Part shown: positions 29,956-64,000 of the stretch, in pieces
Position numbering within the stretch: the stretch's first letter is position 1
Layout of the letters: each line of letters opens with the position of its first letter
Assembly: GCA_011523055.1 (NCBI GenBank)
Contig: WTHQ01000037.1
Location: 3,210-67,209 of the forward strand
Reading direction: 5' to 3'
Origin: Methanobacteriota archaeon
GTDB taxonomy: Archaea; Thermoplasmatota; Poseidoniia; Poseidoniales; Thalassarchaeaceae
DNA length: 64,000 nt
Made by a program: the position numbers and the translations under genes
Notes under the pieces: model-generated
The model's input: only the letters and a program-made list of their open reading frames with translations
What the model was told of the DNA's origin: nothing
Database searches by the model: none

Positions 29956-32343
29956 TCAGTCGGTTGGTCCAATAAACAATTTACGCTTGCTGAGCATCGG
30001 GAGCGAACCCCCGATCAGGAGTAGAATCCAACCGAACCAGACCATATGGCTTCCCTTGAGGTCGTAAACGGTTACTCCAACTCTATCCACTTCGTCAATT
30101 TCACCCATCATCATGTTGGTGATGACCCTGTTGGCTTGCTGAATGTCCAAGATGAACATCAAGTCGCCGTCCAACTGAGTAACTCTGTCTACCTCTGACC
30201 TAGGAATTATGGCTCCAGAAGGAGTATCAAACCGAAGTATGGAGGGACTGACTTCATTGATGAATTCCCCCTCCAAATCAGCTACATCTATGTGGAATCT
30301 CACAAGGCCGTCGGCTATCGAGTACCCATAGCCCGGGTCGCTGGAATCTAGGATCTCCAACCCAGTGAAAGTCAGGATGTAGCCTTCGTGTTCCACCGGC
30401 TGGTCCTTGACCAAGGTCACCAAGTGGGAGGGATCCGTCCGATCGACCAATGTAGTAGTCAATACGTGTCCAAAAAGAAGGAGCAGGATGCCGACATGTG
30501 CGATGCTAGAGCCCACCGATCTTAGACCCCGATTCGACCGATTGAATTGAGGGGCGCTGGCACTAGCTGTTTTCGATTTCCTTAGCGCTCTAATCATCTC
30601 GCCGATGGACGAGGGTATTGAGAAGATAACCAGGGTTAGCAGGAATGCACTAACCTGTCCCCTAGTCAGTTCCTCTGTAAGATACCTGTCAGCATCCCCG
30701 GGCAAGGCTATTTTGTCCGACATGAGTCCTGATGTTATTGACAGCAAGAGGATTCCGAGGACAACGAAGAGCCCGGTTTTACCGTTTGATCTGATCCCCC
30801 ATGAATGAAAAATCAGACCGATGGCGAGTGCTGCGACGAAGGGAGCGCCGAAGACCTCATGAGCCTCTAGACTGGTTCCGTCTATCTCCGCCGTCAAGAG
30901 CATCCATGTCAATGCTAGATACCCCATGGCTCCAAACCATGGGGTGGATCTCGCGAAGGCATTCTGGCTCCTGGCGTTCACTAGCCTCTCGATGGGGATT
31001 CCTTCAGCATCCTTTGGCGACGAAAGCACCCATGGCAAGAGGAACACTGCCATCCCCATGATAGATAGGGAAAGGGGCGCCATCCAAGACCAGCTGGCAA
31101 AAAGGTACAGTGCGACACCTGAAAAAATCCAAACAGGGTCAGCATCATCTCCATCGCCCTCTATGACCAGAACCATCAAGCCCATGCTCAGCGACAACAA
31201 GAGAACGGAGCCGCTGAGTACACCGATGATTATCACGGCAGTCACAAGGAAAATGGAAAGTGTTGGAGTGGTTTTTCTCATTGAAGACCTACCCTGAATA
31301 CTGAGTGCAGCAGATTGATTTTTCATCAGGTTCCTCAAGATTGCTAGCCCGAAAAGGACTGTTATAATCAAGTAGGTCATTACCTCGACTCCAGCCGCAC
31401 CTTCGCCGAACAAGGAGACTATTCGCAGGTATGGATCTGATGACTCAGACCCAACACCGTCCGCCGCGAAGGAATGCACCGATGCCCACACGCCATTGGC
31501 CCTGGTCACCAATGTCGCATGCATGGCCAATGCACCCACTGCAATCACGATTGATGGGCTGGAGGCCAGGGCCCTCTTGTCAGACTGGCTTCTCGCATGC
31601 AGGACTGCCACTAAGCCGATCCATGGCAAGAATGAGGCTGTTTCAACCGGATCCCACGCCCAATACCCCCCCCAATCGAGTACGGTGTAAGCCCACAAAC
31701 CCCCTAGTCCAATCCCTGCGGTTCCAACCACAAATGCAGCTCTCGACCAAGGAAGGGTTCGCTGGTGGATCGTGGCCTGATCGAGCCCCAAAATCGACCC
31801 CGCCACAGATATCAGTGCAGGTATGATGCATAGTGAATAGAAAGCGAAAATCACGGGCGGGTGGATGACCATTAGGTCTGTTTGTAGGAGTGGATTCAGT
31901 TGGCCGCTGAAGCCAGAACTTGGTGCAAATGGGTCCAGTAGGATCGAAATGGACAGTAGCGTCCCCGTGAAACCAACACACAGCCTCAATGAGAGGTTCT
32001 GAGCGTCTTTCGTTTTTGTGAGTAAGAACGTACCGAGTGCCATCCAACCACACCACATCAGTAGTGGGCCTGCTCTACCACCCCATACTGCTGATATTCT
32101 GTAAAATAGGGGGAGATCCGAACCTCCAAGAGTCGCTACCATCTCCAGCGAATCCCAATCCAGAAGAAAAGCAAGGAGGAGCAGTGCGAATGGGCTGGAT
32201 TGGAGAATTAACAGATACCTGAGTTGCGATGTCTTTGAGGATTTTTTGTTAGAGGCCCAATACAGAGATACTGCTGCCGCAGTGAAGAGGACCAATCGGC
32301 CAGTGAGTGACAACAAGTGACTACCATCCGTAATATTTCGCAC
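29956..32343 (-). CDS. ccmF: Cytochrome c-type biogenesis heme lyase CcmF-like (WWD-domain polytopic membrane protein with C-terminal periplasmic domain)
   Basis: Tryptophan-rich WWD signature DWGGYWAWDPVETASFLPWI (compare the CcmF consensus [20 protein letters not shown]). At least 12 TM helices. An about 200 aa C-terminal soluble domain. 795 aa. Confidence 0.8.
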   Translation of the reverse strand: MRNITDGSHLLSLTGRLVLFTAAAVSLYWASNKKSSKTSQLRYLLILQSSPFALLLLAFLLDWDSLEMVATLGGSDLPLFYRISAVWGGRAGPLLMWCGWMALGTFLLTKTKDAQNLSLRLCVGFTGTLLSISILLDPFAPSSGFSGQLNPLLQTDLMVIHPPVIFAFYSLCIIPALISVAGSILGLDQATIHQRTLPWSRAAFVVGTAGIGLGGLWAYTVLDWGGYWAWDPVETASFLPWIGLVAVLHARSQSDKRALASSPSIVIAVGALAMHATLVTRANGVWASVHSFAADGVGSESSDPYLRIVSLFGEGAAGVEVMTYLIITVLFGLAILRNLMKNQSAALSIQGRSSMRKTTPTLSIFLVTAVIIIGVLSGSVLLLSLSMGLMVLVIEGDGDDADPVWIFSGVALYLFASWSWMAPLSLSIMGMAVFLLPWVLSSPKDAEGIPIERLVNARSQNAFARSTPWFGAMGYLALTWMLLTAEIDGTSLEAHEVFGAPFVAALAIGLIFHSWGIRSNGKTGLFVVLGILLLSITSGLMSDKIALPGDADRYLTEELTRGQVSAFLLTLVIFSIPSSIGEMIRALRKSKTASASAPQFNRSNRGLRSVGSSIAHVGILLLLFGHVLTTTLVDRTDPSHLVTLVKDQPVEHEGYILTFTGLEILDSSDPGYGYSIADGLVRFHIDVADLEGEFINEVSPSILRFDTPSGAIIPRSEVDRVTQLDGDLMFILDIQQANRVITNMMMGEIDEVDRVGVTVYDLKGSHMVWFGWILLLIGGSLPMLSKRKLFIGPTD

Positions 32344-35628: not shown

Positions 35629-36603
35629 ATGAAAGGAAAAGATGTCCTTGATTTTGTTAAAGTTGAGCATACCTTGTTCTCATTGCCGTTTGTGCTGATA
35701 GGCTTCATTCTTGCCCGGAAGGAATTCGAAGAGGATGTTTTCCAGCTCAGCCCTTCGAACTTGGACCTTATTTGGATTATTATCGCAGCGATTGGGGCCC
35801 GAGGGCTGGCCATGGCATTGAACAGAATCATTGACAAGGACATAGACGCTTTGAATCCTCGAACGGCCTCAAGGCATCTTCCCTCTGGAAGGATGAATGA
35901 CCTTGAGGCTTGGTCCTTATCGCTTGTATTCCTCGCTGCGCTTCTGGGCGCTTCTTGGAGGTTGAACATGGTTGCTCTCCAGATGGCATGGTTGCCAGTC
36001 GTGGCATTCATTGTCTACCCGTACATGAAACGGATCTCCTGGATATGCCACTTTTGGATAGGTCTTTGCCTTGCTATGGCCCCAGCAGGAGCTTGGGTCG
36101 CAGTATCTGCTGACACGTTAGGATGGGGGTCAATCATGGGAGTTGGAGGTGGCAATTGGACAAATAGGGACTTCGAATGGTTTCCTGAGTTGCTCTTCAT
36201 TTCGATAGGTGTGGCGCTATGGATAACTGCGTTCGACGTGAACTATGCACGGATGGATGTCGAAGTCGACCGGAACCAGGGGATTCGATCGTTCCCGGCG
36301 AAATTTGGACTCAAGTCGACCATGATACTAAGCATCGCCCTGACGATTGGATGGCTTTTTTGCTTCTTAACTGCTGGATTGGGCCAATTTACAGACAATC
36401 GCGACTACAGGTTTCCATATTGGATTCCCTGTGTTATATTGATGTGCGTTGTCAATTTGTATGTAATGACTTTCTTGGCAGCGAAATCCGATTCCTCTGA
36501 GATGGAGATGGAACGGTTCCAGAAAATCCTGTTCAATGCCTCAATGCTGACCGGTTGGGTATTGCTAGCGAGTCTTTCATTCACCGAGGCCACAATTCGT
36601 TGA
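35629..36603 (+). CDS. UbiA-family aromatic prenyltransferase
   Basis: First Asp-rich motif NRIIDKDIDALNPRT (NxxxDxxxD). Second motif in DVNYARMDVEVDRNQG. Eight or nine TM helices. Starts 13 nt after the UbiD homolog. Confidence 0.85.
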   Translation: MKGKDVLDFVKVEHTLFSLPFVLIGFILARKEFEEDVFQLSPSNLDLIWIIIAAIGARGLAMALNRIIDKDIDALNPRTASRHLPSGRMNDLEAWSLSLVFLAALLGASWRLNMVALQMAWLPVVAFIVYPYMKRISWICHFWIGLCLAMAPAGAWVAVSADTLGWGSIMGVGGGNWTNRDFEWFPELLFISIGVALWITAFDVNYARMDVEVDRNQGIRSFPAKFGLKSTMILSIALTIGWLFCFLTAGLGQFTDNRDYRFPYWIPCVILMCVVNLYVMTFLAAKSDSSEMEMERFQKILFNASMLTGWVLLASLSFTEATIR

Positions 36604-45241: not shown

Positions 45242-47251
45242 ATGAATAGCCTGTTGGGAATTCCCGGGGTTGGAGAGACTCTTGGAAGAAAACTAGCTGA
45301 TGGTCTCGGTGGAGAGGCGGGGGCACTGAAAGCGATCCAAGAAAGGGATATTGCTTCCATCTCGTCGATAGAGGGCATCTCGGTTGATAGGGCGATCAAG
45401 ATAGTCTCGGTTTTCTCAGGCGAAGGTGAAAGTGCCGCAAAAAATCAGTATGCCCAGCACCTTCACAATTCTACATTACAGGACATTGCAACCCATATCT
45501 CATCGTCTGCTGCGAGAAAGAAGCTTGGTATCCTTCAACCATTATCAGTGAATTCCCAAGAGGATATACTTGATAGAAGGAGAAGGGTCGAAGAGGCGAT
45601 ATCCTTCGTGGCAAGTTATCCTAGTGCAACAAGAGATTGGGTCAGGATCGCGAAGTCGGTAAAACCCTTGAGTAGATCAAAGAAAAAGGTGGACAGACTA
45701 ATTGTGGTGCAGAACCCTGAGGAGTTAGAAAATCTCGGTTCCGCTGAGGATTTCGCCAGAATAGTGGTAAGGGGATCTGGAGAGACATGGAAGGACTACG
45801 AGGGCCTCCCCAGAGTTACGTGGATTGGGTCTAATCAACCAACAGAACTTCCCCCGGGTTGGAGAATATGTGACGTAGACGACAATCTATGGGAATTAAT
45901 ACCCGAGTTAGCATTGAGATTCGTTGATGAGAATGTCAATACAATAAACGCACTGATTGAAATTAGTAATTTAGACATTGGGAGAGACGTACTTAGTGAG
46001 AAAATAAGGGACGCACTCGATGGGCTAGAGGCTCTGGGAACTGTGCTTATCCAGGGCAATGAAGTCGACAAACTAGAGGAAATAAAAGATGGCCTTTGGA
46101 ATGAAACTAGTAGGATTCAAGATAGTGTAGATGACATGATAGTAGCAGCTACCCAAGGAAGCAAATTATCACTCGATGGATCCGAGATGCTATCATATTA
46201 TTCAGATAGTTCTGGCTTGCAAAATCGATTGAAATATGAGGTTTCTGAATCTATAGAATATGCCCTTGAAGAAGGGAAAAACAAACTTAGGGAGTACCTT
46301 GACTCAGTGGATATCAAAATACCAAGTGATTGTTTCCAGAGCGACTATCCGTGTTTGTTCAACAAGGAAACCATAGCGAGGATAGAAGAGGGGATTGATT
46401 TCCTGATATCCAAGGGTGAAGACGAATCAGTCAAAAAGAGGGTTTTGTTGATACTAAGTCATTCAGAAAGGATATCCAAGGCAGTCTCAGAGGTTATAGA
46501 TTTAGATCTCTGGATTGGTATCGCCAGGTGGTGCGAATACCGGAGATGCACTCTCCCAGTTCTGGCAACTAGTTCTCGACCAAGTTGCAAAGTGAAAGGG
46601 CTACGCCACCCCCTATTAGGTGTTGATCCTGTGCCAATCGACTATGGATTTGGTAGTATGCCAGGTGATTCGTTTGATGGATCGATTGTTCTGCTGACTG
46701 GGGCCAACTCTGGAGGAAAGACCTCCTTGATCGAGGGGATTGGTATTGTTGTACTACTCGCGCATGCTGGATTGCCGGTCCCCTGTGATGAGGCTGTAAT
46801 TTCACTGGCAGAAGAGATTCACATTATGTCAAAGGTCACCGGGACACAAAGTGCCGGCGCCCTAGAGAGGACGTTGATAAAACTCGCAACAATAGTCGGC
46901 TCCAGTTCAAGTAAATTCGTTCTTGCAGACGAGTTGGAAGCGATCACTGAGCCAGAAGCTGCTTCAGCGATCCTCGCTGGACTTCTTGATGTAGCAGCCA
47001 AAGATGCTGTGAATTCTATATTGATGGTGACTCACATAGGATCCTCAATCTGCGGGAAAATGGATTCAGATGCCAGAGTCGATGGCATCGAGGCAAAGGG
47101 TTTGGACGAAGAATTAGAATTGGTTGTCGATAGAGTACCACGAATAGGGATTCCCGCAAGGTCAACTCCCGAGTTAATTCTGAAAAGGTTGGAAGCCAGA
47201 TCAAACGGATCCAAATCAGACATTTTCAAGTCCATACTTCAAAAAATCTGA
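45242..47251 (+). CDS. mutS2: MutS2-family ATPase (MutS domain V; N-terminal helix-hairpin-helix)
   Basis: Walker A LLTGANSGGKTSLIEGIG. MutS signature context (LADELEAITEPEAASAIL, MVTHIG). N-terminal HhH LGIPGVGETLGRKLADGLG. 669 aa. Confidence 0.8.
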   Translation: MNSLLGIPGVGETLGRKLADGLGGEAGALKAIQERDIASISSIEGISVDRAIKIVSVFSGEGESAAKNQYAQHLHNSTLQDIATHISSSAARKKLGILQPLSVNSQEDILDRRRRVEEAISFVASYPSATRDWVRIAKSVKPLSRSKKKVDRLIVVQNPEELENLGSAEDFARIVVRGSGETWKDYEGLPRVTWIGSNQPTELPPGWRICDVDDNLWELIPELALRFVDENVNTINALIEISNLDIGRDVLSEKIRDALDGLEALGTVLIQGNEVDKLEEIKDGLWNETSRIQDSVDDMIVAATQGSKLSLDGSEMLSYYSDSSGLQNRLKYEVSESIEYALEEGKNKLREYLDSVDIKIPSDCFQSDYPCLFNKETIARIEEGIDFLISKGEDESVKKRVLLILSHSERISKAVSEVIDLDLWIGIARWCEYRRCTLPVLATSSRPSCKVKGLRHPLLGVDPVPIDYGFGSMPGDSFDGSIVLLTGANSGGKTSLIEGIGIVVLLAHAGLPVPCDEAVISLAEEIHIMSKVTGTQSAGALERTLIKLATIVGSSSSKFVLADELEAITEPEAASAILAGLLDVAAKDAVNSILMVTHIGSSICGKMDSDARVDGIEAKGLDEELELVVDRVPRIGIPARSTPELILKRLEARSNGSKSDIFKSILQKI

Positions 47252-47269
47252 GAATATTTACCTTCAAAA

Positions 47270-48028
47270 TCATTTTTCTTTGAATAGCCTGTTCATTAAC
47301 TCTTGATCATGTTTAATCGCGGTGAGTGGTACTTCCTCAAGAGTTCCCCTTTTGTTTCCGAGAAAAAGAAGGACTGCCCTAACAAACCTTCCCTTCTTTA
47401 TCATGTTCACCATCTTCCATAATCGATCTTCTCCCTGGGTGCTGTGGGACTTAACGTCAAAGCAATCCCACCCTAGATGGTTCGATAACAACGTGTCGGA
47501 CTCCGGATGTCCTAATTCGATGCACAAATCAAATCTTTGTAACAATTCCACTGCCTTTTCAATTGATTCTTCGCTAGAAAAATTGTACTCTTCCCCATGG
47601 AGTATCGACTTCATAAATGGGTTCGAATATCCTCTATTCTCAATGTAAGTGGAAAGTTTCCTCTCGTGGGTCTCAGCTAGATAGAAATCATAATTGTAAT
47701 TTGATAGACAGGTTTCCGTAGGATCTCTAAGTGAACATATTGTCCTGACTTGTGGGTGGCTCAGAGCTGCCTCCAAGATGGAATAGCCCCCTGCTACCGA
47801 TACAAAGGATATTTCTGTAGCGATTGCATCCTCGAAGAATTGTAAAGATTCTTCTTTGGAAAAACTAGGTAGATCAATCGTTGATCCAAATGGCGTACAT
47901 GGCTTGCCATTGTCATGTTTTCTCCATAGCTTCTCGCCATTTTCGATGGCAAGATTGACCATCCTAGTGCCACCAGCTTTCCTAAAATGAAGAAAGACAT
48001 TCAGTTTTTTTTCTGGCACATCGATCAT
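47270..48028 (-). CDS. Sulfotransferase-family protein (PAPS-dependent, Sulfotransfer_2/3-like)
   Basis: 5'-PSB-like LHFRKAGGT (compare hIPKtGGT) and 3'-PB-like LRDPTETCLSNYNY (RDPxxRxxS). About 250 aa, the size of the family. Confidence 0.6.
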   Translation of the reverse strand: MIDVPEKKLNVFLHFRKAGGTRMVNLAIENGEKLWRKHDNGKPCTPFGSTIDLPSFSKEESLQFFEDAIATEISFVSVAGGYSILEAALSHPQVRTICSLRDPTETCLSNYNYDFYLAETHERKLSTYIENRGYSNPFMKSILHGEEYNFSSEESIEKAVELLQRFDLCIELGHPESDTLLSNHLGWDCFDVKSHSTQGEDRLWKMVNMIKKGRFVRAVLLFLGNKRGTLEEVPLTAIKHDQELMNRLFKEK

Positions 48029-52420: not shown

Positions 52421-53662
52421 CTAACCCTCATTGTCAGAGGCAATATTCTTCTGGACTCCTCTGAATAACGACTCGAACCAGCCCAATACGAATTGCCATG
52501 GCACTAGGTACCTGGCCATGCTGAAGAAGAGAAGAAACAGGCCGGCAGAAATCACTTTTCCATAGGTCATCTGTAATTCCAATGAGTCATTTACCTGCTG
52601 ACTCCATTGATTTGGTTGGAACTCGGAAATGACCGTAATCAAAATCTCATCGAAGTCCAATGCGACTGCAGTTAGTAAGGTTGCGAGTGAAACAACGCCG
52701 AATAGTTGGAACAGGTGAGTGTTCAATACTGTCTGAAACATCCTGATGTGTTCAGGGTCTGTGCGGGCGCTCTCCGGCAACATGGCCACATACTCAAACA
52801 AGCGTATGCACATGTGAGAGGATTCAAAGAATAGGAAAAGTACTACTGAGATTGTAATCAATTCAAATGCGAGGGGAGAAACCAGCCCCCCGAACATGGT
52901 GGATTCTCCGATTTGGGCTGGTAGTGGATTCAGCCCGATGCCTTGCACAGAGTCAAGAACAGCCTCGAATGTTAGAAGAGCATGGAATATTAGGAACATA
53001 ACGATGTAACTCATTGTTGCCACAATCGCCCTCATTGATAGGTTCCAAATTCCAATCAGGCCGAACAATACGGGGGCGAAAACAACTCCCATGACGATGA
53101 ATTCCGAAATCATCTGCATTGGAAGCAGGAGTCTGTCACCGTGGTTGAATATCTCTAGATCCTGGCCAAAGGGGACGTAGACTTGGCGGTAGGTGACCAT
53201 CCCAGTTATCCATTCAAACAAGAATGGCCCTAGACCAAAAATTAGGGCAGTAGAGTAAATTCCAATTCTCAACCTTCGACGGAGTTTTGAGTCCCGAGTG
53301 GAAGCGATAGCATGAGCCCCTGTCAAAAGCAAGCAGAATACAGAAGGGAAGAGCAAGGAGGTGCTTCCGACTTGGCCGACTCCGGTAATGACATCTGGCA
53401 GTATGGCGTCCCTTTGGAATGACTGTTCGACATACGCGATACCGCGTGTGTGCTCAAATGCTGGACACCAATAGCTCTCGCCGTCAGCCTCATCAATGAA
53501 GTCTTGGTCACACTCCCCATACTTCGAGGTCATGGTCAAAATCAACATGGCCAAGGAGGCAGTTGCAACGACTTGCAACGCTAGAATCTGCCATCGTGTC
53601 CTGAGGGACCTCAACCGAAGGGTTTTGCCGTTGTTGTGCCCCTCTTCGCTCATTTTCGACAC
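52421..53662 (-). CDS. Hypothetical polytopic membrane protein (about 10 TM), last gene of the cdc48/DUF58 operon
   Basis: ORF-track ORF directly abutting the DUF58 stop (53662/53663). Multiple hydrophobic helices. No motif recognised. Confidence 0.6.
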   Translation of the reverse strand: MSKMSEEGHNNGKTLRLRSLRTRWQILALQVVATASLAMLILTMTSKYGECDQDFIDEADGESYWCPAFEHTRGIAYVEQSFQRDAILPDVITGVGQVGSTSLLFPSVFCLLLTGAHAIASTRDSKLRRRLRIGIYSTALIFGLGPFLFEWITGMVTYRQVYVPFGQDLEIFNHGDRLLLPMQMISEFIVMGVVFAPVLFGLIGIWNLSMRAIVATMSYIVMFLIFHALLTFEAVLDSVQGIGLNPLPAQIGESTMFGGLVSPLAFELITISVVLFLFFESSHMCIRLFEYVAMLPESARTDPEHIRMFQTVLNTHLFQLFGVVSLATLLTAVALDFDEILITVISEFQPNQWSQQVNDSLELQMTYGKVISAGLFLLFFSMARYLVPWQFVLGWFESLFRGVQKNIASDNEG

Positions 53663-54925
53663 CTACCCCTTTTTGACCTGTAATAACGCCTGAGCAAGAT
53701 CAATGTCTGGAACCCAATCTATAACATTGGCACCATAGCCGTTCAACGACATGAGCCTATTTTGCCGCTCCATCTTGAGGACCTCGTAGGCCATCCTTGG
53801 GATTCGACTCACAAGTCTCTCCAAATCGACTGAATTCGGAGAGAGCACGTAAACCGTGTGGCCGTGGCTCGACAGCGCTCTTATCGCAGGCAATGCGGTA
53901 CCATCGCCTTCAAGGCTACTAACGACGAAAACAGGGGATCCTCTGTTCATCCTGGGTATGAGCGCATTAGTAACTGCCTGAATAGGCATCGAGCCCCCGG
54001 CTGACACGCCGGCTAGCAAACTGAGAATCTTGTATTGCTGTTTGTCACCGGCCTCTGCAGGGAGGTGGTCCATTCTCCTACCATAGGTTGTGAGAGAGAC
54101 CGCATCCCGCCTTCTGATGAAGTGATTGGAAATTGATGCCGTTGCAACAGCCCCCATCTCGAGAGGGTTCTTCAGCACGGTACCGATCCTTGATATGTCC
54201 CTCGTGTCGAATAGGATGTGCACGTCTGTGACTGCATCCCTGACCTTCTCATTGACCATCAGATCTCCTGTTCTCGCAAATGCTTTCCAATTTATTGACC
54301 TGAATGAGTCTCCGGGCATGTACTCTCTCAATGAGTAAAACTCTGTTCCTTGGCCGGGGGTCCTCAGTGTAGTTGCTCCTGTGTACATCTTTGGGACATT
54401 GGAGCGGAGCAAAGCATCCTCGATGTCCCTGACTTGGGGGAATACAATTACGTCACTTCTCTTGTCCTCTACCCCTTCGTCGGTGAAGAGCCCGAAAACG
54501 TCCCTGTATCTCAGCGAAGTGGGTCCGATAGAGAAATGGCCTCGCAATGGGCATCTCACGGTGTATCTCAACACAGTTGATTGTCCAGGGCCCAAGTTGG
54601 CCCTGATCATGTTTATCCCTCTTCGGATTTTCATTTCATGGGGTACGTTGTCATAAATGTCCAATGTCTGTGTTCTTCTCCTTGACCGGTTGCTTATCGT
54701 GAGAGTGACAGTTATGTCGTCGCCCTTGTAGACATTCTCTTCGGACAACTCCCTCTCAACTGCCAGATTTGGATAGCCGCTCACCCAACTTGCCATGACG
54801 AGCAAGGAAACCATCAGCATTCCGAGAATCATCAGGTGGAAATGACTTACCATCATTCCAATCAGGATAAGCGAGATGCCCCCGACAAGCGTCATTGTTG
54901 CCTTCCTTGTCCACATTGTATTCAC
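53663..54925 (-). CDS. DUF58-family protein (vWA-like module that normally partners MoxR AAA ATPases), N-terminal double TM
   Basis: Core EFYSLREYMPGDSFRSINWKAFARTGDLMVNEKVRD matches the DUF58 signature (Y.pGD..R.IdWk..AR). Two N-terminal TM helices. Overlaps the upstream gene by 4 nt. Confidence 0.75.
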   Translation of the reverse strand: MNTMWTRKATMTLVGGISLILIGMMVSHFHLMILGMLMVSLLVMASWVSGYPNLAVERELSEENVYKGDDITVTLTISNRSRRRTQTLDIYDNVPHEMKIRRGINMIRANLGPGQSTVLRYTVRCPLRGHFSIGPTSLRYRDVFGLFTDEGVEDKRSDVIVFPQVRDIEDALLRSNVPKMYTGATTLRTPGQGTEFYSLREYMPGDSFRSINWKAFARTGDLMVNEKVRDAVTDVHILFDTRDISRIGTVLKNPLEMGAVATASISNHFIRRRDAVSLTTYGRRMDHLPAEAGDKQQYKILSLLAGVSAGGSMPIQAVTNALIPRMNRGSPVFVVSSLEGDGTALPAIRALSSHGHTVYVLSPNSVDLERLVSRIPRMAYEVLKMERQNRLMSLNGYGANVIDWVPDIDLAQALLQVKKG

Positions 54926-56586
54926 AGGTCCATCAAATCTTCATCAGGCTCATCTTCGTCTGGGCCCCACTCTCGCATTCTTTTGACAACTCCAACCAAC
55001 TCTTGTGTTTTGTACCTTCTATTGTCGTATATGAAGCGAAGTAGAACTTGATCATCAACGAGGTCCTTGAGCTCCTCCGAGGACAGGGAGTCGAATTCCT
55101 CCCTAGTCATCGTGTTTTTGCTCCTTACCCTAGAAAGGAAGACCTGTCGAATTTTGTCTGGGTGTTGGTAGAACTCATACCTCTTTGCGTCACCAAAACC
55201 ATAGTAGATTATCCTGAAGACGTGTCGCCAATCCTCGGGATCCTCCTTTCTGATCAGTACCACCTCCAACATCATGAAGAGCGCCAGAAAGAGGATGAGC
55301 ATTGCCATCCAATCATTGGTGAAATACACTAGGAAGTAGTATGCTAGATTGTAGGTATCCGAAAGGGGATTGGTTTGTTGGTGTCGACTTTCATCAAAGA
55401 TGACTATTGCATTCTCGCTCGGATTCAATGAGTCATTACCAACCAACAGGGCATCGGCAATGATATCCAGTGCCCAAAACCTATTGTCATTCTCAGGAAC
55501 ATTAGATCCGTCGATCTTCGAGGATGAGTAAATGGCATTGATCAGGAGTGATCCATCTGATGCGATGTGCACTTGACCAGAGGATGGCTCAGCGCATAAT
55601 CTGGACGAGCATATTCTGGCATAGACGGCGAATGGCCCCTGCTCGTCTCCTTGGATCCCTGCCGCCTCGAATGCGGGCGTGAGGTCGCCATCGTCGTTTG
55701 AATCCAAGTAGGAGTCTAGTGTGGATGTAATGACAGGGTATCGATTTTCAGCGGGGGAAAACAAAGACTCCTTGTCGAAAGCAGATGGTTTGCTCGTGAG
55801 GAGGTCATAGCTTTCGGAGAAGTCATATGTTTTCTGCTCAGAGTCCCACCGATGTCCACACAAGCCAAATGAGTCATCAATTGGCGTGAAGCCTACGTTC
55901 TTTTGATCTGGGTCTGGGTCGATCAGATCGAGTATCAGATCACCGTCTCTATCTGCGAGGCATGGGTGGTAAATCGAGGTTGATCCTGAAGTTTGAGTTA
56001 GGTTGTAGGCATTGGTAACGTTCGTCCAGACATAGTTGTAATCCAGCTCCCTAGCCCACGCCTCCCCGTCATACAATTGATGATTGGAGAAGAGAATGTT
56101 GTATTCTTGGGCGAGGGCGGATGAGTATCCGAAGTCATCCATCAACAGCAGAGTACCTCCTGCTTGGACGTACTCAACGATTGCTTCAATCTCCGAGCCA
56201 GTGTATCCATCAGTGTCAGACAGTTCGACAATGGAGTCATCATCTGTAAATCGAGGCAATGAGATTGTATCACGTTCAACGCCAGATACCACAAATATTG
56301 TTTCCTCTGGGTTGTCGATCTCTGATAGGAGTAGCGGGCTCGATACCATTGCCGTGGTCTCAACCCCCATTGAGTTAATTTCCGATCTGAAATCGCCGAG
56401 GTCGTCCCAGTCGTCCCCATAGGCAGATTGTTGCGTTTTTCCATCGACTATGTATGTTGATGCAATGAAGGCAACCAAGAGGGTCAGAACAGACCAAAAA
56501 GAGAATTTGAGGAGTCTCTGTCGATTGGCTTGGTTGAAGATCTTTGATGTCCGTCTCGGCCCACTCATCATCGGTCCACCCCCCAC
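54922..56586 (-). CDS. Membrane protein with large extracytoplasmic domain flanked by N- and C-terminal TM helices plus an about 110 aa cytoplasmic tail (DUF4350-like architecture)
   Basis: N-terminal helix FSFWSVLTLLVAFIASTYIV. GTLLLMDDFG motif. C-terminal helix WMAMLILFLALFMMLEVVLI. This placement beside DUF58 is typical of DUF4350 proteins in Bat/MoxR-type operons. Confidence 0.55.
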   Translation of the reverse strand: MGGGPMMSGPRRTSKIFNQANRQRLLKFSFWSVLTLLVAFIASTYIVDGKTQQSAYGDDWDDLGDFRSEINSMGVETTAMVSSPLLLSEIDNPEETIFVVSGVERDTISLPRFTDDDSIVELSDTDGYTGSEIEAIVEYVQAGGTLLLMDDFGYSSALAQEYNILFSNHQLYDGEAWARELDYNYVWTNVTNAYNLTQTSGSTSIYHPCLADRDGDLILDLIDPDPDQKNVGFTPIDDSFGLCGHRWDSEQKTYDFSESYDLLTSKPSAFDKESLFSPAENRYPVITSTLDSYLDSNDDGDLTPAFEAAGIQGDEQGPFAVYARICSSRLCAEPSSGQVHIASDGSLLINAIYSSSKIDGSNVPENDNRFWALDIIADALLVGNDSLNPSENAIVIFDESRHQQTNPLSDTYNLAYYFLVYFTNDWMAMLILFLALFMMLEVVLIRKEDPEDWRHVFRIIYYGFGDAKRYEFYQHPDKIRQVFLSRVRSKNTMTREEFDSLSSEELKDLVDDQVLLRFIYDNRRYKTQELVGVVKRMREWGPDEDEPDEDLMDL

Positions 56587-59227: not shown

Positions 59228-60880
59228 TTGAGGGTTCAATCTGGGACAGGCATGACACATGTCCTGGCCGCAGACTTTGAGCAGATTCAGAACACCAATC
59301 CAAACGGCTCGCCCATGATCCGTGGATACAACATTATCAATGGTAAATTGGAGAGTGCTTCTGACGGGTCCACTTTCTCTTCTGTAAATCCTGCACTGCT
59401 TTCTGATACCCTCGGCGAGTTCCCTCTGTCCACGCGAGATGACGTTCACAGCGCGTTGAAGGCCGCGAGGTCTGCATTCCCATCATGGGCTGGGACGCCT
59501 GCTCCGACTAGGGGCCAGATAATCGGAAATATGGGCCGCTTGCTCATGGACAGGAAGGACGCACTCGTGAGGTTGGAGACAAGAGAAATCGGAAAGACAC
59601 TGAAAGAAAGTGCGGGCGAGATTCAAGAGGCCATTGACACATGCCTGTTTTTCCAGTCAGAAGGGAGGAGGCTCTATGGCCAAACTGTGAACAGCGAGCT
59701 TCCTGACAAGGAGCTCTTCACCTACAGGAGGCCGCTTGGCGTCTGTGGAATAATTAACTCATGCAATTTTCCATCTGCTGTACCTTTCTGGAAGATGATT
59801 CCAGCTATCATGTGCGGCAACACTTGTGTTTGGAAGTCTCCACAAGACTCCCCTTTGCTCTCCTTCGCACTTGCAAGGATAATGCATGAGGCTGGGCTGC
59901 CTGACGGCGTGGTAAATCTCATCCATGGCAAAGGAAGCGGCGCGGGCCAAGATCTCGTTAACGCTGTGGACGAAGGGCTGGTCAACAAGATTTCATTCAC
60001 AGGGTCAACGGAAGTCGGAAAGATGATTGGGGAGATTTGCGGTCGGAACCTAGTCTCTTGCTCCCTTGAACTCGGAGGCAAGAATCCATTGGTTGTAATG
60101 CCCTCTGCCAACCTCGAAAATGCAGTCGAGGGGGCCTACTGGGCAGGCTTTGGGACCGCCGGTCAAAGATGCACGAGCCTTGGAAACCTGATACTCCACG
60201 AGGGCATCTACGATGAGTTCATGGCCTTGTTCATGGAGAAGGTGAAGCAAACAAAAATAGGCGATTCTATGAAGAATCAGGACGTATTGTACGGCCCGAT
60301 GCTCTCCCCGAAATACGCTGAGGAGTTTCTTCAAAGCCTGGAGGTGTGTGATTCAAGTGGTGCCGAACTCATCTTCGGTAAGGGTCGAATCACCAAAGAG
60401 TCAGCGCCAGTCGGCTTCGTCGCTGATGCCAATGAGGGCGTCTACATGTGGCCTCACGTCTACACTGGCGTCACGGAGGACATGGATTGCTTCCATGATG
60501 AGATATTTGGTCCTGCTGTCACAGTTGTCAAAGCTAGGGATTTCGATCACGCCCTACACCTGGCAAATGCGTCCCCTTATGGGCTGTCAAGCGCGATATA
60601 CACTAATGACAGGTTGGAGGCCTACAGGTTCAAATCTGGCATAAAGGCAGGTATGACCGGCATAAACAACTCCACCACTGGAGCAGAGGCCCATCTGCCG
60701 TTCGGTGGTGTCAAGGGGTCAGGAAACGGCACACGCGAATCTGGGATCTGGGTAATTGAGTCCTACTCCTATTGGCACGCGGTCAACGATGAGCTTTCAG
60801 GGAAGCTTCAACTTGCCCAGATGGACGTAGATGAGGTCCACATCGAGGAAGCAGAAGTGAACTACGATTCCCTGGCTTGA
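59228..60880 (+). CDS. NAD(P)-dependent aldehyde dehydrogenase
   Basis: ALDH motifs ELGGKNP and EIFGPAV. Catalytic Cys in GQRCTS. The alternative start M30 (59315) gives 521 aa. Confidence 0.9.
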   Translation: MRVQSGTGMTHVLAADFEQIQNTNPNGSPMIRGYNIINGKLESASDGSTFSSVNPALLSDTLGEFPLSTRDDVHSALKAARSAFPSWAGTPAPTRGQIIGNMGRLLMDRKDALVRLETREIGKTLKESAGEIQEAIDTCLFFQSEGRRLYGQTVNSELPDKELFTYRRPLGVCGIINSCNFPSAVPFWKMIPAIMCGNTCVWKSPQDSPLLSFALARIMHEAGLPDGVVNLIHGKGSGAGQDLVNAVDEGLVNKISFTGSTEVGKMIGEICGRNLVSCSLELGGKNPLVVMPSANLENAVEGAYWAGFGTAGQRCTSLGNLILHEGIYDEFMALFMEKVKQTKIGDSMKNQDVLYGPMLSPKYAEEFLQSLEVCDSSGAELIFGKGRITKESAPVGFVADANEGVYMWPHVYTGVTEDMDCFHDEIFGPAVTVVKARDFDHALHLANASPYGLSSAIYTNDRLEAYRFKSGIKAGMTGINNSTTGAEAHLPFGGVKGSGNGTRESGIWVIESYSYWHAVNDELSGKLQLAQMDVDEVHIEEAEVNYDSLA

Positions 60881-60949
60881 GTGGTTCAAAGAACATTTCC
60901 AATTGGAATAAGTGAAAAGTTCTATTTTCCTCCAGCCACAAAGCCCCCC

Positions 60950-63900
60950 ATGGTAAAGAGACTTGTGACGGCAGTTTTTCTAGGAGCGTTGATGATACTA
61001 CTGTCTACTAATTCGTTGTTGGTGGACCAGGGAACACAAACAGAAGTAGAGATCCTCTCTGATGAAATCCGCTTGGAATCCATCTCCAGCAACTCTCCGG
61101 GCCAAGTTCTGGGCCACATTGACACCCATGACACACTCTCGATCGGAAGGCAGTTCGCCTGCGCCGTCACTGAGAACTCCAGCGTGGTGTGCTGGGGCAG
61201 GACAGATTACGGTCAAACCGGAATCGGGACCTCGGGATCCCAAGCGTACCACAACATGACCTATGTGGATGCGCTGAATGGGATGGGGATCGTGGAGGTC
61301 TCGGCACACCTCGACCACGCATGCGGACTTACCTCCCAGGGGGTAGTCTATTGCTGGGGAAGCAACCAAAATGGCCAGATCGGCAACGGGCAAGTCGGAG
61401 GGAACGTACTCGTCCCAACTCAGGCCCTGTTGCCACAGGGCGTCGTCGCAAAGTCACTCTCGCAGGGACCGAGTGCCCACACCTGCATAATCAGCACCGA
61501 TGGCGACCTGTATTGCTGGGGCAATAACAACAGGGGGCAAGTTGGCAATGGTCAGATCTGCTTTGATTGGAATGGGGCTGTATTGTACACAAACCCATGC
61601 TACAATGGCCAATCTGGGATATTGACCCCTGAATTGATCGCCATGCCATCTGGTGTCGCTGTGACTTCTGTCAGCGTTGGAGGCGAGCACACGTGTGCCA
61701 CAGGCACTGATGGTGGGGTGTATTGCTGGGGATCAGACATGAATTGCAGGGTCACTGGCGGAGACACCGTTTCTGCTGACCCGATAACCGAAGCTCCTGG
61801 ATGCGGTTATTGGTGGTTATCAGATACACCACGCAAGCTTGCAATGTCAAACCCAGAAGTAACAATCCAGGATGTAGGGAACTTATCCTTCGTTCAGGCG
61901 GTCAACGGTTGGGTTTTCTCCTGTGCGATGACCGACACTGGTTCCGGGATTTGCTGGGGGGCAAACACCGAGAGCCAACAAGGGATCGGCAACAACAGCA
62001 ACGAGCCCTTTGCCGTGGTGCCGACGATGATTCAAGGCCCCCCGGGGGAAAGCATGACGAGCATGTCCGCCACTACGGCCCAAGCATGCGCCCTGTATGA
62101 CCAAACCGGAGCCCATTGCTGGGGTGACAACTGGGCTGGCAACACGGGGGACTACAATGGCTCGAACGACGTGATATGCAACTACCAATATGGAGCAGGG
62201 GGCGGTGGCAACATAAATTGTCAAGACCGTTCTGCACCCCATCAGGTCCACACAGGTGGGAATTACATGGCAGTGGTCATGGGTGCTGCGAACGCATGTG
62301 GCTTAGACTCATCAAACGACATCCACTGCTGGGGGGCCTATGCTTGGAACAATGTGAACCAGTCCTATCACCAGATCTGGTGGGGCACTCGTGTCCCGGA
62401 ACTCATGCAGCTCCCCGGTACCGCGAAGATTGCATTAGACGACCTCGATTCAGATGGCGACGGGCTGAACTCCCCATTCGACCTCTGGCCCGAGGGTTGC
62501 CCGTCCGGATGGTACCAAGACGCTCCAAACTCGTGTGCCGAGGCTCCTGCGGGATACTATGCCGAGGAGGGGCTGCCGTGGAACCTCGTCATTTGCCCGA
62601 GCGGAACCTTCCAACCTGATGGTGGACAGCCATCTTGCATCGATTCATCCCCTGGCTACCACGTTCCTGATGAGGGTGCATACTCTCAGACCATATGTCC
62701 CGCTGGATCATACCAACCCAACTCTGGATCCTCGAACTGCATCCTCGCTGACCCCGGTCATATGGTTGAGACTCCTGGCAAGACCTTCCAATCCCCATGT
62801 ACAATGGGCAGATACTCCTCAACGCCAGGGGCAACCTCATGCATGAGGGCGAGTCCTGGCTTCTACGTCGATAGCGCATCCGCTACCGAGCAAACACCCT
62901 GTCCACCAGGAAGCTACAGCTCCATGGAGGGCTCGGTCTCATGCTCCTCGACTTCGCCAGGGCAATACACCTCAGCCAATGCATCGACACAGCCTGAGTT
63001 ATGCTCACAGGGGTCCTACCAGCCAGACGCGGCCAGTTCGAGCTGCATTCTTGCTCCTGCGGGACACTACGTCTCCTCAGTCGGAGCCACATCGTTCCAG
63101 CCATGCCTGTCAGGTGAATATCAGCCCCTCGAAGGTTCAACGGACTGCGAGGTAACGTTGCCGGGGTACTACACATCCGGTGCTGGATCCGTCGAGTCTG
63201 TTCCGTGCCAACCAGGCTCGTACCAAGCCAATAGCCGGGCTGACATGTGTGTTTTTGCTATCCCTGGGTCATATGTCAGCACTGAGGCCGCTGTAGAATA
63301 CACGATCTGCTCTGTCGGAACCTTCCAGCCTAATCAGGGCTCATCTGGGTGTATGGTCGTAGAAGCAGGCCACTATGCTATCGGGGAGGGTGCTCAGAAC
63401 CAGATTGCTTGTCCCGTTACGACCTACCAACCCATGACCGGTCAGACTAGTTGTATCGACGTTGAAGCAGGCCACTACACGAATCAGATGGGGTCCTCAG
63501 AGCAAGTCCCTTGTGAGCCAGGCACATACCAGCCGATGGTGAAAACGACCAGTTGTCGTGATTCTCCAGCGGGGCATTTCGTCCCAGGAAGCGGTGCTAC
63601 TGAATTCATGGCATGCGTTGTCGGGACCTACCAACCAATCTCCGCCTCATCATCTTGCATCGAGGCAGATGAGGGTCACTTCGTGGATTCCACGTCCCAG
63701 CTAAGCCAGAAGCCATGTGAGAAAGGTGCCTATCAACCCAGTCAAGGCTCATCTGAGTGTCTTTCTGCAGACGAAGGGCACTTCGTCGATGCGATTGCTG
63801 CTACCGAGCAGACACCCTGTCCACCAGGAACTTACCAAGCTCTACAGGGACAGTCCTCGTGCACATTCACATCCACGAACTTCTTCACATCCGAGTCGGG

Positions 63901-64000
63901 ATCTGTAGATCAGACCCCCTGTCCACCAGGACAACATCAACCGTTGACATCCCAAACGGAATGCGTCGAGAAGCCCGATGAGGGCGGCCTGTTGCCAGCA
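60950..64000 (+). CDS. Giant secreted protein, 3'-truncated by the window (more than 1017 aa): signal peptide, RCC1-like beta-propeller repeats, then at least 25 tandem Cys-rich ephrin-receptor-like (GCC2/GCC3-type) repeats
   Basis: ATG at 60950, in frame without a stop to position 64000. N-terminus MVKRLVTAVFLGALMILLSTNS. About 7 repeats of ..C[WY]G.N..GQ.G.G (VVCWGRTDYGQTGIG, VYCWGSNQNGQIGNG, LYCWGNNNRGQVGNG, ICWGANTESQQGIG, AHCWGDNWAGNTGD). From about residue 510 the unit C.PG.YQP..G...C....PG.Y......... recurs every about 20 residues (CPSGTFQPDGGQPSCIDSSPGYHV, CPPGSYSSMEGSVSC, CQPGSYQANSRADMC). The minus-strand ORFs the track lists here are artefacts. Confidence 0.85.
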   Translation, partial: MVKRLVTAVFLGALMILLSTNSLLVDQGTQTEVEILSDEIRLESISSNSPGQVLGHIDTHDTLSIGRQFACAVTENSSVVCWGRTDYGQTGIGTSGSQAYHNMTYVDALNGMGIVEVSAHLDHACGLTSQGVVYCWGSNQNGQIGNGQVGGNVLVPTQALLPQGVVAKSLSQGPSAHTCIISTDGDLYCWGNNNRGQVGNGQICFDWNGAVLYTNPCYNGQSGILTPELIAMPSGVAVTSVSVGGEHTCATGTDGGVYCWGSDMNCRVTGGDTVSADPITEAPGCGYWWLSDTPRKLAMSNPEVTIQDVGNLSFVQAVNGWVFSCAMTDTGSGICWGANTESQQGIGNNSNEPFAVVPTMIQGPPGESMTSMSATTAQACALYDQTGAHCWGDNWAGNTGDYNGSNDVICNYQYGAGGGGNINCQDRSAPHQVHTGGNYMAVVMGAANACGLDSSNDIHCWGAYAWNNVNQSYHQIWWGTRVPELMQLPGTAKIALDDLDSDGDGLNSPFDLWPEGCPSGWYQDAPNSCAEAPAGYYAEEGLPWNLVICPSGTFQPDGGQPSCIDSSPGYHVPDEGAYSQTICPAGSYQPNSGSSNCILADPGHMVETPGKTFQSPCTMGRYSSTPGATSCMRASPGFYVDSASATEQTPCPPGSYSSMEGSVSCSSTSPGQYTSANASTQPELCSQGSYQPDAASSSCILAPAGHYVSSVGATSFQPCLSGEYQPLEGSTDCEVTLPGYYTSGAGSVESVPCQPGSYQANSRADMCVFAIPGSYVSTEAAVEYTICSVGTFQPNQGSSGCMVVEAGHYAIGEGAQNQIACPVTTYQPMTGQTSCIDVEAGHYTNQMGSSEQVPCEPGTYQPMVKTTSCRDSPAGHFVPGSGATEFMACVVGTYQPISASSSCIEADEGHFVDSTSQLSQKPCEKGAYQPSQGSSECLSADEGHFVDAIAATEQTPCPPGTYQALQGQSSCTFTSTNFFTSESGSVDQTPCPPGQHQPLTSQTECVEKPDEGGLLPA

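Follow-up and report, generated by a model that had tools for sequence, protein, structure and literature searches.

Probable cell-surface protein encoded at the window end

What kind of protein is encoded by the long reading frame that runs off the end of the window (the whole 64,000-nucleotide stretch of DNA analyzed here), and what might its archaeal host use it for? Marine Group II (MGII) archaea are among the most abundant archaea of the surface ocean and are uncultured; to our knowledge, neither their cell envelope nor the machinery by which they attach has been characterized to any real extent. MGII cells are thought to attach to particles, and published inferences about their adhesion rest on genes for flagella, "thrombospondin" and flotillin (PMC6461757). 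Our analyses favor, with a probability of roughly 0.6, an uncharacterized cell-surface protein built from a propeller head, a Cys-rich stalk and a membrane anchor. The original prediction had placed the gene in an archaeon, and this holds, the host being an MGII archaeon of the Thalassarchaeaceae type.

Gene limits, upstream element and N-terminus

A single frame is open from the stop codon at 60878-60880 to base 64000. Its start codon, ATG 60950, does not vary among 12 aligned orthologous loci and leaves 1017 codons up to the window end; the open reading frame is real. Three orthologs measure 1040, 1044, and 1044 aa at 96%, 85%, and 78% identity, respectively, and full-length orthologs range from 1040 to 1079 aa. 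By this comparison, the protein probably ends about 23 residues past base 64000. With only these ~23 codons left, it totals about 1040 aa and hence is not "giant," as it had been called; it does continue beyond the window as predicted, but only by the short stretch that would form the membrane anchor. A stop just past the window, which had been put forward as a sign of a pseudogene, is the natural terminus and is kept in more than 20 species. A full-length ortholog contains only two hydrophobic segments, one at each extreme end. The protein is acidic (pI 4.2), with seven N-x-S/T sequons and 50 Cys residues, of which the propeller has 20 and the stalk 30, and the portion encoded in the window matched no NCBIfam family.

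Upstream of the gene, a BRE/TATA-like element, GAAAAGTTCTATTTT (60914..60928, plus strand), sits 22-36 nt before the start codon. When 12 orthologous upstream regions are aligned, this block and the ATG are kept while the remaining spacer has diverged. Conservation of such an archaeal element suggests that the gene has its own putative promoter and a short-leader or leaderless mRNA.

The encoded protein opens with MVKR followed by ~18 hydrophobic residues, in agreement with the N-terminal signal proposed earlier. This signal peptide or signal anchor, MVKRLVTAVFLGALMILLSTNSLLV (aa 1-25; 60950..61024 including the start codon, plus strand), was assigned by eye from hydrophobicity, and AF2 predicts a helix at aa 3-20. 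If the signal is left uncleaved, both ends of the protein would be membrane-embedded. An acidic linker follows (aa 26-58; 61025..61123, plus strand), marked by low model confidence (pLDDT <50 over aa 1-60) and poor conservation (25-66% identity).

RCC1-like propeller head

Pfam, motif, and Foldseek analyses delimit a seven-bladed RCC1-like beta-propeller at aa 59-490 (61124..62419, plus strand). Its C-x9-CWG blades number exactly seven (starting from aa 71, they lie at aa 71, 125, 179, 249, 325, 380, and 450), and three RCC1 families score above their Pfam cut-offs: PF25390 (WD40_RLD; 157.9 bits, cut-off 150, E 5.8e-46), PF13540 (RCC1_2; 119.1 bits, cut-off 22, E 4.2e-35), and PF00415 (RCC1; 72 bits, cut-off 21.7, E 5.9e-20). 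The approximately seven RCC1 blades of the original prediction are thus borne out. The 20 Cys residues of the head comprise the seven C-x9-C pairs of the blades and three loop pairs. Foldseek matched the head, modeled at a pLDDT of only 65-83, to the propellers of UVR8, RCC1, RPGR, and HERC2, with target TM-scores of up to 0.84 (0.80-0.84 for UVR8 and 0.70-0.74 for RCC1).

In eukaryotes, RCC1 functions in guanine-nucleotide exchange on Ran-type GTPases. Such activity is not expected in an extracellular archaeal protein, and membership in the fold does not imply it. Among the secreted proteins of bacteria, RCC1 propellers are abundant, so the description of the protein as eukaryote-type and unusual was overstated. 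Bacterial secreted and surface propellers (COG5184, labeled "alpha-tubulin suppressor-like RCC1 family") share with the archaeal head both the seven blades and the bacterial-type blade H.C....G..YCWG.N..GQLG. Bacterial homologs, found in the hundreds, are 25-33% identical to it, but in a scan of species-representative genomes the matches span the propeller only and lack an Ephrin-like stalk. A secreted seven-bladed RCC1-like binder is represented by BLIP-II of Streptomyces; we know of no bacterial or archaeal RCC1-propeller member whose ligand is defined and could be carried over to the archaeal protein.

The head is joined to the stalk by a junction (aa 491-516; 62420..62497, plus strand) carrying the motif D-x-D-x-D-G...D...GC, in which D500, D502, D504, G505, D511, and G516 are invariant among nine sequences of 31-96% identity. 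Modeled at a pLDDT below 50, the junction may serve as a Ca2+-binding hinge resembling that of thrombospondin type 3, a putative role read from the motif. A thrombospondin type 3 repeat as such was rejected: Pfam TSP_3 gave no match at E<=1, and the junction holds only a single invariant DxDxDG...D motif.

Cys-rich stalk

A regular Cys-rich array extends from C517 to the window end, and the stalk proper covers aa 517-1009 (62498..63976, plus strand), with an Ephrin_rec_like / growth-factor-receptor Cys-rich fold. From C549 on, the spacing between Cys residues alternates strictly between 14 and 20, so that the true period is 34 aa rather than ~20. The original count of at least 25 copies of a ~20-residue unit therefore has to be replaced: the motif C.PG.YQP..G...C occurs 15 times, in 13 canonical 34-aa units, which are preceded by a variant unit and followed by a half unit; together these contain the 30 stalk Cys. 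Viewed as hairpins of ~17 aa each, the stalk consists of 29, of which 15 are bounded by Cys and alternate with 14 "PG.Y" hairpins that lack Cys. The ephrin-receptor-like assignment stands, since PF07699 (Ephrin_rec_like) scores 132.2 bits against a cut-off of 23.1 (E 5.5e-39; 11 stretches), and by Pfam the repeats do not move to a different Cys-rich family.

The AF2 model of the stalk (pLDDT 87.6) shows regular beta-hairpins of the two-residue type, a fold in agreement with the Cys-rich domains (CRDs) of EphA2/EphB2, Elapor1, and TNFRs. Ephrin receptor CRDs and other members of PF07699 (formerly GCC2_GCC3), including Elapor1, have the same family and fold as the archaeal stalk. Characterized members, however, are metazoan receptors with one or few units, whereas the archaeal protein is prokaryotic, strings together 29 consecutive hairpins with half the canonical Cys, and uses them as a stalk. 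The CRDs of TNFRs (4-1BB, CD40, RANK) and class C GPCRs (CaSR, TAS1R) belong to the same broad fold class, defined by stacked small disulfide-bonded hairpins.

The nearest solved structure is the Cys-rich rod of the Chlamydomonas mastigoneme protein MST1 (PDB 8tx1, 8wa2, 9b4h), which was reached only by a 51-column unit profile; a phmmer search of PDB sequences with the stalk returned nothing. The MST1 rod is a 26-nm growth-factor-receptor Cys-rich domain in which a ladder of 26 disulfides provides robustness (PMC11015965, PMC10602792). MST1, like Elapor1, has a canonical CxxC at each ~17-aa hairpin junction. This is absent from the archaeal stalk, whose unit retains only every other Cys pair: aligned by profile with MST1, it shows a consensus Ala in place of one junction's second Cys and a consensus Gln in place of the following junction's first Cys, leaving two Cys per 34 aa instead of four. 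This half-Cys pattern is a variant inside PF07699 and is not excluded by the HMM. The likeness to MST1 is confined to the rod. MST1 is a eukaryotic, filament-forming protein with nine Ig domains and a glycosylated polyproline helix, and without a propeller or membrane anchor; in the archaeal protein, neither Ig domains (by Pfam) nor a Pro-rich tail was found. Scaled from MST1, in which 678 residues span 26 nm, the archaeal rod would be on the order of 20 nm long. The candidate disulfide would connect C1 to C15 inside a unit or C15 to C1' between units.

The number of units (15) and every Cys are conserved across orthologs of 31-96% identity. The units themselves share on average 36% of their amino acids (maximum 53%) and 44% of their nucleotides (maximum 55%), and TRF found no tandem array, which shows no nucleotide-level homogenization of repeats, a possibility that had been considered; divergence among the units is ancient. 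A fixed repeat number is unusual for adhesins, and a structural spacer fits the data equally well. By suggesting a length constraint, the fixed number also favors a structural envelope component in place of an adhesin: either an S-layer-like canopy, with propellers tiled into a lattice on pillars of fixed length, or mastigoneme-like fibers formed by antiparallel stalk-stalk dimerization. In the same direction point the single conserved locus with its promoter-like element kept in 12 species, and the role of the homologous MST1 rod as the polymerization interface of its filament (PMC11015965). We nevertheless hold an envelope component to be unlikely, for reasons that come from paralogs and recombination (see below).

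Probable C-terminal anchor

The last codons of the window begin a C-terminal sorting or anchor signal (DEGGLLPA...; 63977..64000, plus strand) that is cut off at the window end. Orthologs continue with PGF or PGL, ~18 hydrophobic residues, RSKxx, and a stop. In orthologs P0002-P0006 the tail reads LLPGF, ~18 hydrophobic residues, and RSK or SRK; in P0001, the closest ortholog, it reads LLPGL, with PGL in place of PGF, and the second hydrophobic segment covers aa 1012-1036. This tripartite arrangement of PGF, hydrophobic helix, and basic residues, of which the window shows only GGLLPA, is shared by the archaeal orthologs and the Haloferax S-layer glycoprotein, an archaeosortase A substrate. The PGF_CTERM model TIGR04126 came close to its threshold with the isolated P0002 tail (23.8 bits, E 2.6e-5, cut-off 24.5). 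In contrast to established archaeosortase A substrates, however, the orthologs stay below the cut-off: full-length P0002 scored 16.3 bits, P0001, P0004, P0006, and P0007 gave no match to TIGR04126, and in the more distant relatives P0007 and P0008 a plain TM helix is followed by a long basic tail. We read the C-terminus as a probable PGF-CTERM-like membrane anchor. Anchors of the PGF-CTERM type are typical of archaeal S-layer glycoproteins, and the anchor, a weak match here, thereby adds to the case for an envelope component.

Elsewhere in the window, a hydropathy count gave three multi-TM ORFs (7230-8315, 35629-36603, and 52421-53662), the last of which, the only one searched against Pfam, had no match. 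The PGF motif is absent from the other large window ORFs with C-terminal hydrophobic helices, and a search of the available literature on MGII and archaeosortase found no link to ArtA.

Proposed display at the cell surface

Extracellular, disulfide-stabilized display is the natural reading of this architecture. The Sec-type signal at the N-terminus would direct export, and the 50 Cys would undergo oxidative folding outside the cell. At the other end, the PGF-like motif, hydrophobic helix, and basic tail would hold the protein in the membrane, the anchor being either retained as a transmembrane helix or processed by an archaeosortase to a lipid anchor. The hairpin array would form a stiff rod, with one disulfide per 34 residues, that places the seven-bladed propeller at the membrane-distal tip. 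There the propeller may act as a ligand-binding module, the candidates being particles, the surfaces of algae or cells, or a macromolecular substrate. The role in adhesion or particle attachment suggested in the original prediction is plausible. The stalk would serve as a generic spacer, the same lineage also displaying an endonuclease and other heads on such stalks. With its head, rigid stalk, and anchor, the gene family offers a concrete, conserved, and structurally interpretable MGII surface protein that is amenable to expression, cryo-ET imaging, and metatranscriptome tracking.

Taxonomic range and origin

The full head-stalk-anchor architecture is found in Poseidoniales only (21 species representatives), in strict synteny with CDC48, aldehyde dehydrogenase, and SdhAB. 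The label "Acidimicrobiaceae" of one contig (L008) was rejected, and the contig taken as mis-binned MGII, because its neighboring genes are 92-97% identical to those of the window. The stalk alone is far more widespread: used as a query, it retrieved 6928 cluster representatives at E<=1e-3, with stalk-bearing giants of 4-8 kaa among the matches, and chromosomes of both bacteria and archaea encode homologous stalks. In P0181, which has an archaeal context, a stalk of the same 34-aa two-Cys type with a membrane anchor bears an Endonuclease_1 head, while similar stalks carry a beta-helix head (P0254, from a "Euryarchaeota" MAG and incomplete at the C-terminus), multiple propellers (P0298), or a CAP head (P0194, from a gammaproteobacterium). 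Since many proteins of archaea and bacteria combine the 34-aa two-Cys stalk with other heads, calling it unusual went too far; the modules are known and common in marine prokaryotes, and their combined build is real. A Cys-rich module deemed eukaryotic (ephrin receptor, Elapor1, mastigoneme) is thus a modular stalk in marine archaea and bacteria, topped by propeller, nuclease, CAP, or beta-helix heads and present as a variant with half the canonical disulfides. A search of a 5.8-billion protein set with the unit profile A3 gave no match because the profile is too short. Literature searches on Ephrin_rec_like and archaea and on MGII and RCC1 found nothing relevant, and the papers on the transcriptome and viruses of MGII make no mention of the propeller-stalk protein.

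Because PF07699 is best known from eukaryotic proteins and the GC content of the stalk (0.567) is the highest in the window, we also considered that the gene is a pseudogene fragment, stems from eukaryotic contamination, or was recently transferred from a eukaryote to an archaeon. The GC3 of the gene (0.55-0.64) is essentially in the range of its neighbors (0.43-0.61), the propeller lying marginally above, and the excess GC at codon position 2 reflects amino-acid composition. Together with the strict synteny and the conserved termini (the frame is intact and all 21 Poseidoniales species representatives terminate at the same place), this led us to reject all three readings; the prokaryotic homologs and the old divergence between units likewise speak against an artefact, whose probability we regard as close to nil. 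A bolder proposal, which we consider a long shot, is that the protein is the principal envelope protein of Thalassarchaeaceae, as a canopy on disulfide-laddered pillars of about 20 nm or as fibers, and that marine prokaryotes contain a large, old reservoir of the ephrin-receptor-like repeat in the role of a universal display stalk. If so, this reservoir would bear on the origin of the eukaryotic receptor module.

Rapid and mosaic evolution

The gene evolves fast, its dN being 2-8 times that of its syntenic neighbors. Between two strains that are otherwise ~99% identical, SNP density goes up 5-6 fold precisely where the stalk begins, and the propeller has a dS of 0.40 compared with ~2 in the flanks, which indicates exchange between species. 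Head and stalk recombine separately, making the gene a domain-level mosaic. Fast evolution and separate recombination of head and stalk are typical of exposed surface proteins.

Each of these observations would also suit an arms race with viruses or grazers in which the protein serves chiefly as their target or as a decoy. Against this, dN/dS is ~0.1 throughout and the extra divergence is mostly synonymous, pointing to recombination imports under purifying selection instead of positive selection. Nor did viral contigs contain a homolog or mimic: in two scans, stalk homologs were absent and the RCC1 matches were limited to three weak ones. We judge a predominantly target or decoy role to be rather improbable, though it is compatible with propeller display and does not exclude it.

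The mosaic structure bears on the envelope component as well, because independent swaps of propeller and stalk between lineages would be hard on a co-evolved lattice interface. Moreover, paralogs in the same clade differ greatly in length and heads, which suits modular display better than a lattice. Separate recombination of head and stalk between species further provides a useful population-genetic marker for selection acting on the surface of MGII cells.

Reading frame, promoter and domain architecture

The frame starting at position 60002 has its final stop within the window at 60878-60880; the first ATG after it, at 60950 (+), opens 1017 codons that are stop-free up to base 64000. An upstream alignment of 12 orthologous loci revealed that this ATG is invariant. 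The same loci keep a GAAAAGTTCTATTTT block at 60914-60928, 22-36 nt upstream of the ATG, while the remaining spacer diverges; we infer a BRE/TATA-type promoter of the archaeal kind and an mRNA with little or no leader. The protein begins with MVKR followed by ~18 hydrophobic residues.

The original prediction of about seven RCC1-type blades behind an N-terminal signal proved accurate, as there are exactly seven C-x9-CWG blades, at residues 71, 125, 179, 249, 325, 380 and 450. Residues 59-490 matched RCC1-like families in Pfam, all above curated cut-offs (PF25390, 157.9 vs 150; PF13540, 119.1 vs 22; PF00415, 72 vs 21.7), and the array that follows matched Ephrin_rec_like (PF07699) in 11 stretches with 132.2 bits against a cut-off of 23.1, so that both domain assignments are correct. 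An NCBIfam scan of the protein returned no model matches. The whole-protein AlphaFold2 model was mediocre overall (pLDDT 69) and good in the stalk (80-90). In a structure search, the propeller matched UVR8, RCC1, RPGR and HERC2 with TM-scores of at most 0.84 on the target.

The C-terminus and membrane anchoring

The six closest database proteins, P0001 to P0006, cover 100% of the query at 96, 85, 78, 70, 55 and 54% identity and are 1040, 1044, 1044, 1076, 1079 and 1041 aa long, respectively. Beyond the last residues encoded in the window (…DEGGLLPA), the closest proteins add only ~23: PG(F/L), 18 hydrophobic residues, RSKxx and a stop. Because they run no further, the predicted length of the protein is ~1040 aa. 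It does continue past base 64000 as anticipated, but hardly as a giant, and the stop expected just beyond the window is the natural, conserved terminus of these proteins and not the mark of a pseudogene.

A full-length ortholog has only two hydrophobic segments (residues 1-25 and 1012-1036), a pI of 4.2, seven N-x-S/T sequons and 50 Cys, 20 in the propeller and 30 in the stalk. Scanned alone, the C-terminal tail of P0002 scored 23.8 bits on the PGF-CTERM sorting-signal model TIGR04126 (cut-off 24.5); the whole protein scored 16.3 bits, and neither P0001, which carries PGL, nor P0004, P0006 or P0007 matched this model. At 31-32% identity, the more distant relatives P0007 and P0008 have a plain TM helix and a long basic tail at their C-termini. 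A predicted C-terminal membrane anchor can be stated safely, while archaeosortase processing is a possibility.

A 34-residue repeat with one presumptive disulfide

From C517 to C1005, the stalk contains 30 Cys whose spacing alternates 14/20 without exception from C549 on, which makes the repeat 34 residues long. Its first half is a Cys-bounded hairpin, C-P-x-G-x-Y-Q-P-x-x-G-x-x-x-C (15 copies), and its second a Cys-free hairpin, x-x-x-x-P-G-x-Y-V-x-x-x-G-A-x-x-Q-x-P (14 copies). The regular Cys-rich pattern originally described thus stands, but not its period of roughly 20 residues or its count of at least 25. Nucleotide-level homogenisation, which had been raised for examination, was not found: identity between units averages 36% in protein (maximum 53%) and 44% in DNA (maximum 55%), and Tandem Repeats Finder reported no array over the stalk. 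Such divergence marks the repeats as old, with no homogenisation. Unit number and every Cys are kept in all nine aligned sequences. Where head and stalk join, an invariant DxDxDG…D…GC motif is present; it gave no Pfam TSP_3 match and looks like a candidate single Ca2+-binding loop.

A stalk-only AlphaFold2 model (pLDDT 87.6) placed two-residue strands at regular spacing, indicative of stacked small hairpins. The best Foldseek match was the Chlamydomonas mastigoneme protein MST1 (E 2.4e-25; TM 0.67, normalised on the full 519-residue query), followed by Elapor1 and TNF-receptor CRDs. Likewise, a 51-column double-unit profile matched MST1 in the PDB (E 2.9e-23), with Elapor1 and EphB2 found weakly. 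The homologous region of MST1 (residues 1176-1853) is described as a single 26-nm growth-factor-receptor-type Cys-rich domain whose 26 disulfides form a ladder at ~11 A spacing, a source of mechanical robustness, and which is also the antiparallel dimer interface in the filament (PMC11015965; PMC10602792). In the profile alignment, MST1 has CxxC at every hairpin junction (…C-L-P-C-P-A-G-T-F…A-C-Q-Q-C-K-P-G-T), whereas the archaeal units have a consensus Ala in place of the second Cys of one junction and a consensus Gln in place of the first Cys of the following one. With these replacements, the archaeal stalk is a half-disulfide variant of a known repeat family, in which every 34 residues would hold one presumptive disulfide. 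Scaled from MST1 by residue number, the 493-residue stalk would be ~20 nm long; scaling from TNF receptors would presumably give up to ~30 nm.

Host and distribution

The host is a Marine Group II (MGII) archaeon. Its archaeal nature, as originally assigned, is borne out by the source names of cluster members ("Euryarchaeota archaeon", "Candidatus Thalassarchaeaceae archaeon") and by the 86-kb contig of P0001, which shares the gene order of the window (DUF58, CDC48, aldehyde dehydrogenase, the studied gene, SdhA/SdhB) and in addition has MC1 and Hjc as archaeal markers. In a scan with each GTDB species represented by a single genome, the complete architecture (query residues ~1-1016) occurred at 21 loci, all in Poseidoniales and spanning Thalassarchaeaceae and Poseidoniaceae; the remaining matches covered the propeller alone and came mostly from Gemmatimonadota, Myxococcota, Actinomycetota and similar groups. 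The bacterial label of one ortholog locus, Acidimicrobiaceae bacterium EAC9 (L008, NZNH01000024.1), was not accepted: its CDC48, Aldedh and orf554 are 97, 92 and 93% identical to those of the window, and with full MGII synteny the locus is almost certainly an archaeal contig mis-binned into a bacterial MAG.

At E<=1e-3, the stalk alone retrieved 6928 representatives of clusters built at 50% identity; 493 remained at E<=1e-30. Its matches include an MGII protein in which an Endonuclease_1 head sits on the same 34-aa two-Cys stalk, with the TM/basic tail also seen in P0007 (P0181; 6001-8292 in loci L082/L083, an archaeal context with PTH2), a beta-helix-headed protein from a "Euryarchaeota" MAG (P0254), and a 2726-aa protein from marine metagenomes with several RCC1 propellers, the stalk and, ahead of its TM helix, an extended series of DxDxDG thrombospondin-3-like repeats (P0298). 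Further matches were a gammaproteobacterial CAP-domain protein (P0194), a Terriglobales metalloprotease, a Thermomicrobiales PxKF protein, P0268 on a 3.6-Mb bacterial contig, and eukaryotic proteins of Carpediemonas and Mycena. Because matches to the stalk alone are so widely spread and carry various heads, the stalk is apparently a generic display module among marine prokaryotes. The modules originally called eukaryote-type are indeed present, but as both are widespread in prokaryotes, their oddity in an archaeon is weakened, and the term reflects the state of annotation more than biology.

P0181 would be a nuclease displayed on the cell surface, which suggests extracellular DNA scavenging by MGII. 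Proteins like P0298 may be what earlier MGII surveys counted as "thrombospondin genes". Dozens of proteins of 4000-7900 aa with long stalk-repeat arrays (P0300-P0355) lie on metagenomic contigs only slightly longer than the gene itself; their sources could be protists, giant viruses or bacteria.

Rapid mosaic evolution at a conserved locus

The studied gene occupies the same locus in 11 species, in which its neighbors are 85-98% identical to the window while the gene itself is only 54-84% identical. Its dN (Nei-Gojobori) was 0.089-0.40, compared with 0.011-0.11 for CDC48, aldehyde dehydrogenase, orf554 and SdhA/B; dN/dS was ~0.1 where dS was unsaturated. GC3 is ordinary, and the surplus GC resides in codon position 2.

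Comparison of the two domains shows that the gene is a mosaic. The propeller of P0004 is 82% identical to that of the window, but its stalk is 86% identical to that of P0005 and only 59% to that of the window. Against the ortholog locus L002, propeller dS is 0.40, whereas the stalk and flanking genes are near saturation (~2), indicating recent between-species exchange of the head. Against L001, a near-identical strain whose flanks differ by ~1%, there is a 5-6 fold step up in SNP density precisely at the stalk start (62.5 kb), and the density remains elevated to the window end (62498-64000 vs L001 11549-13047). The differences are mainly synonymous (dS 0.23 vs 0.03), and this jump indicates import of a diverged stalk allele. 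The pattern resembles a recombination tract that ends somewhere past the window. A gene that changes so fast and in such a mosaic fashion is suggestive of pressure acting at the cell surface, with viruses as a possible source; the divergence signal, however, is one of recombination under purifying selection and not of positive selection.

A putative surface binding protein

The best-supported reading of these sequence features is an exported, membrane-anchored, disulfide-stabilized protein in which a rigid Ephrin-like stalk would hold the RCC1-type propeller ~20 nm off the membrane. The propeller would act as the binding module and the stalk as a spacer common to other displayed heads; the ligand might be a particle, the surface of an alga, some other cell or a nutrient macromolecule. 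A putative adhesin role would agree with the ecology that has been proposed for MGII (PMC6461757). A structural role in an S-layer-like canopy or fiber is unlikely, even though stalk length is strictly conserved and the homologous MST1 rod is a polymerization interface. The protein belongs to a family of uncharacterized but interpretable surface proteins of an important uncultured archaeal group.

Other genes in the window

An ORF at 3533-7129 (-) encodes 1198 aa with 18 Cys and a He_PIG putative Ig domain; near its C-terminus, one hydrophobic helix precedes a basic tail. It is probably another surface protein with a C-terminal anchor, although one that lacks a PGF motif. The gene for a 1022-aa protein with ~11 predicted TM segments (14115-17183, -) lies directly downstream of a 243-aa ORF whose N-terminus resembles an ABC ATPase (17180-17911, -), with a 4-nt overlap; the two may form a MacB/FtsX-type exporter pair. 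Upstream of CDC48, a conserved three-gene block (52421-56586, -) comprises genes for a 413-aa protein with 7 TM segments, a DUF58 protein that has two TM segments at its N-terminus, and a 554-aa product that matched nothing in Pfam; the block is syntenic in L001, and orf554 is also found in L002-L012. A 795-aa, ~12-TM protein with a cytochrome c assembly (CcsA/ResB-type) domain (29956-32343, -) is consistent with aerobic respiration in the archaeon. Finally, the region 45242-48000, in which GC falls to the window minimum of 0.435 (46001-48000), includes a 669-aa HHH_5 + MutS_V (MutS2-like) gene with a GC3 of 0.43 compared with 0.54-0.64 elsewhere, and is a possible island or differently evolving region.
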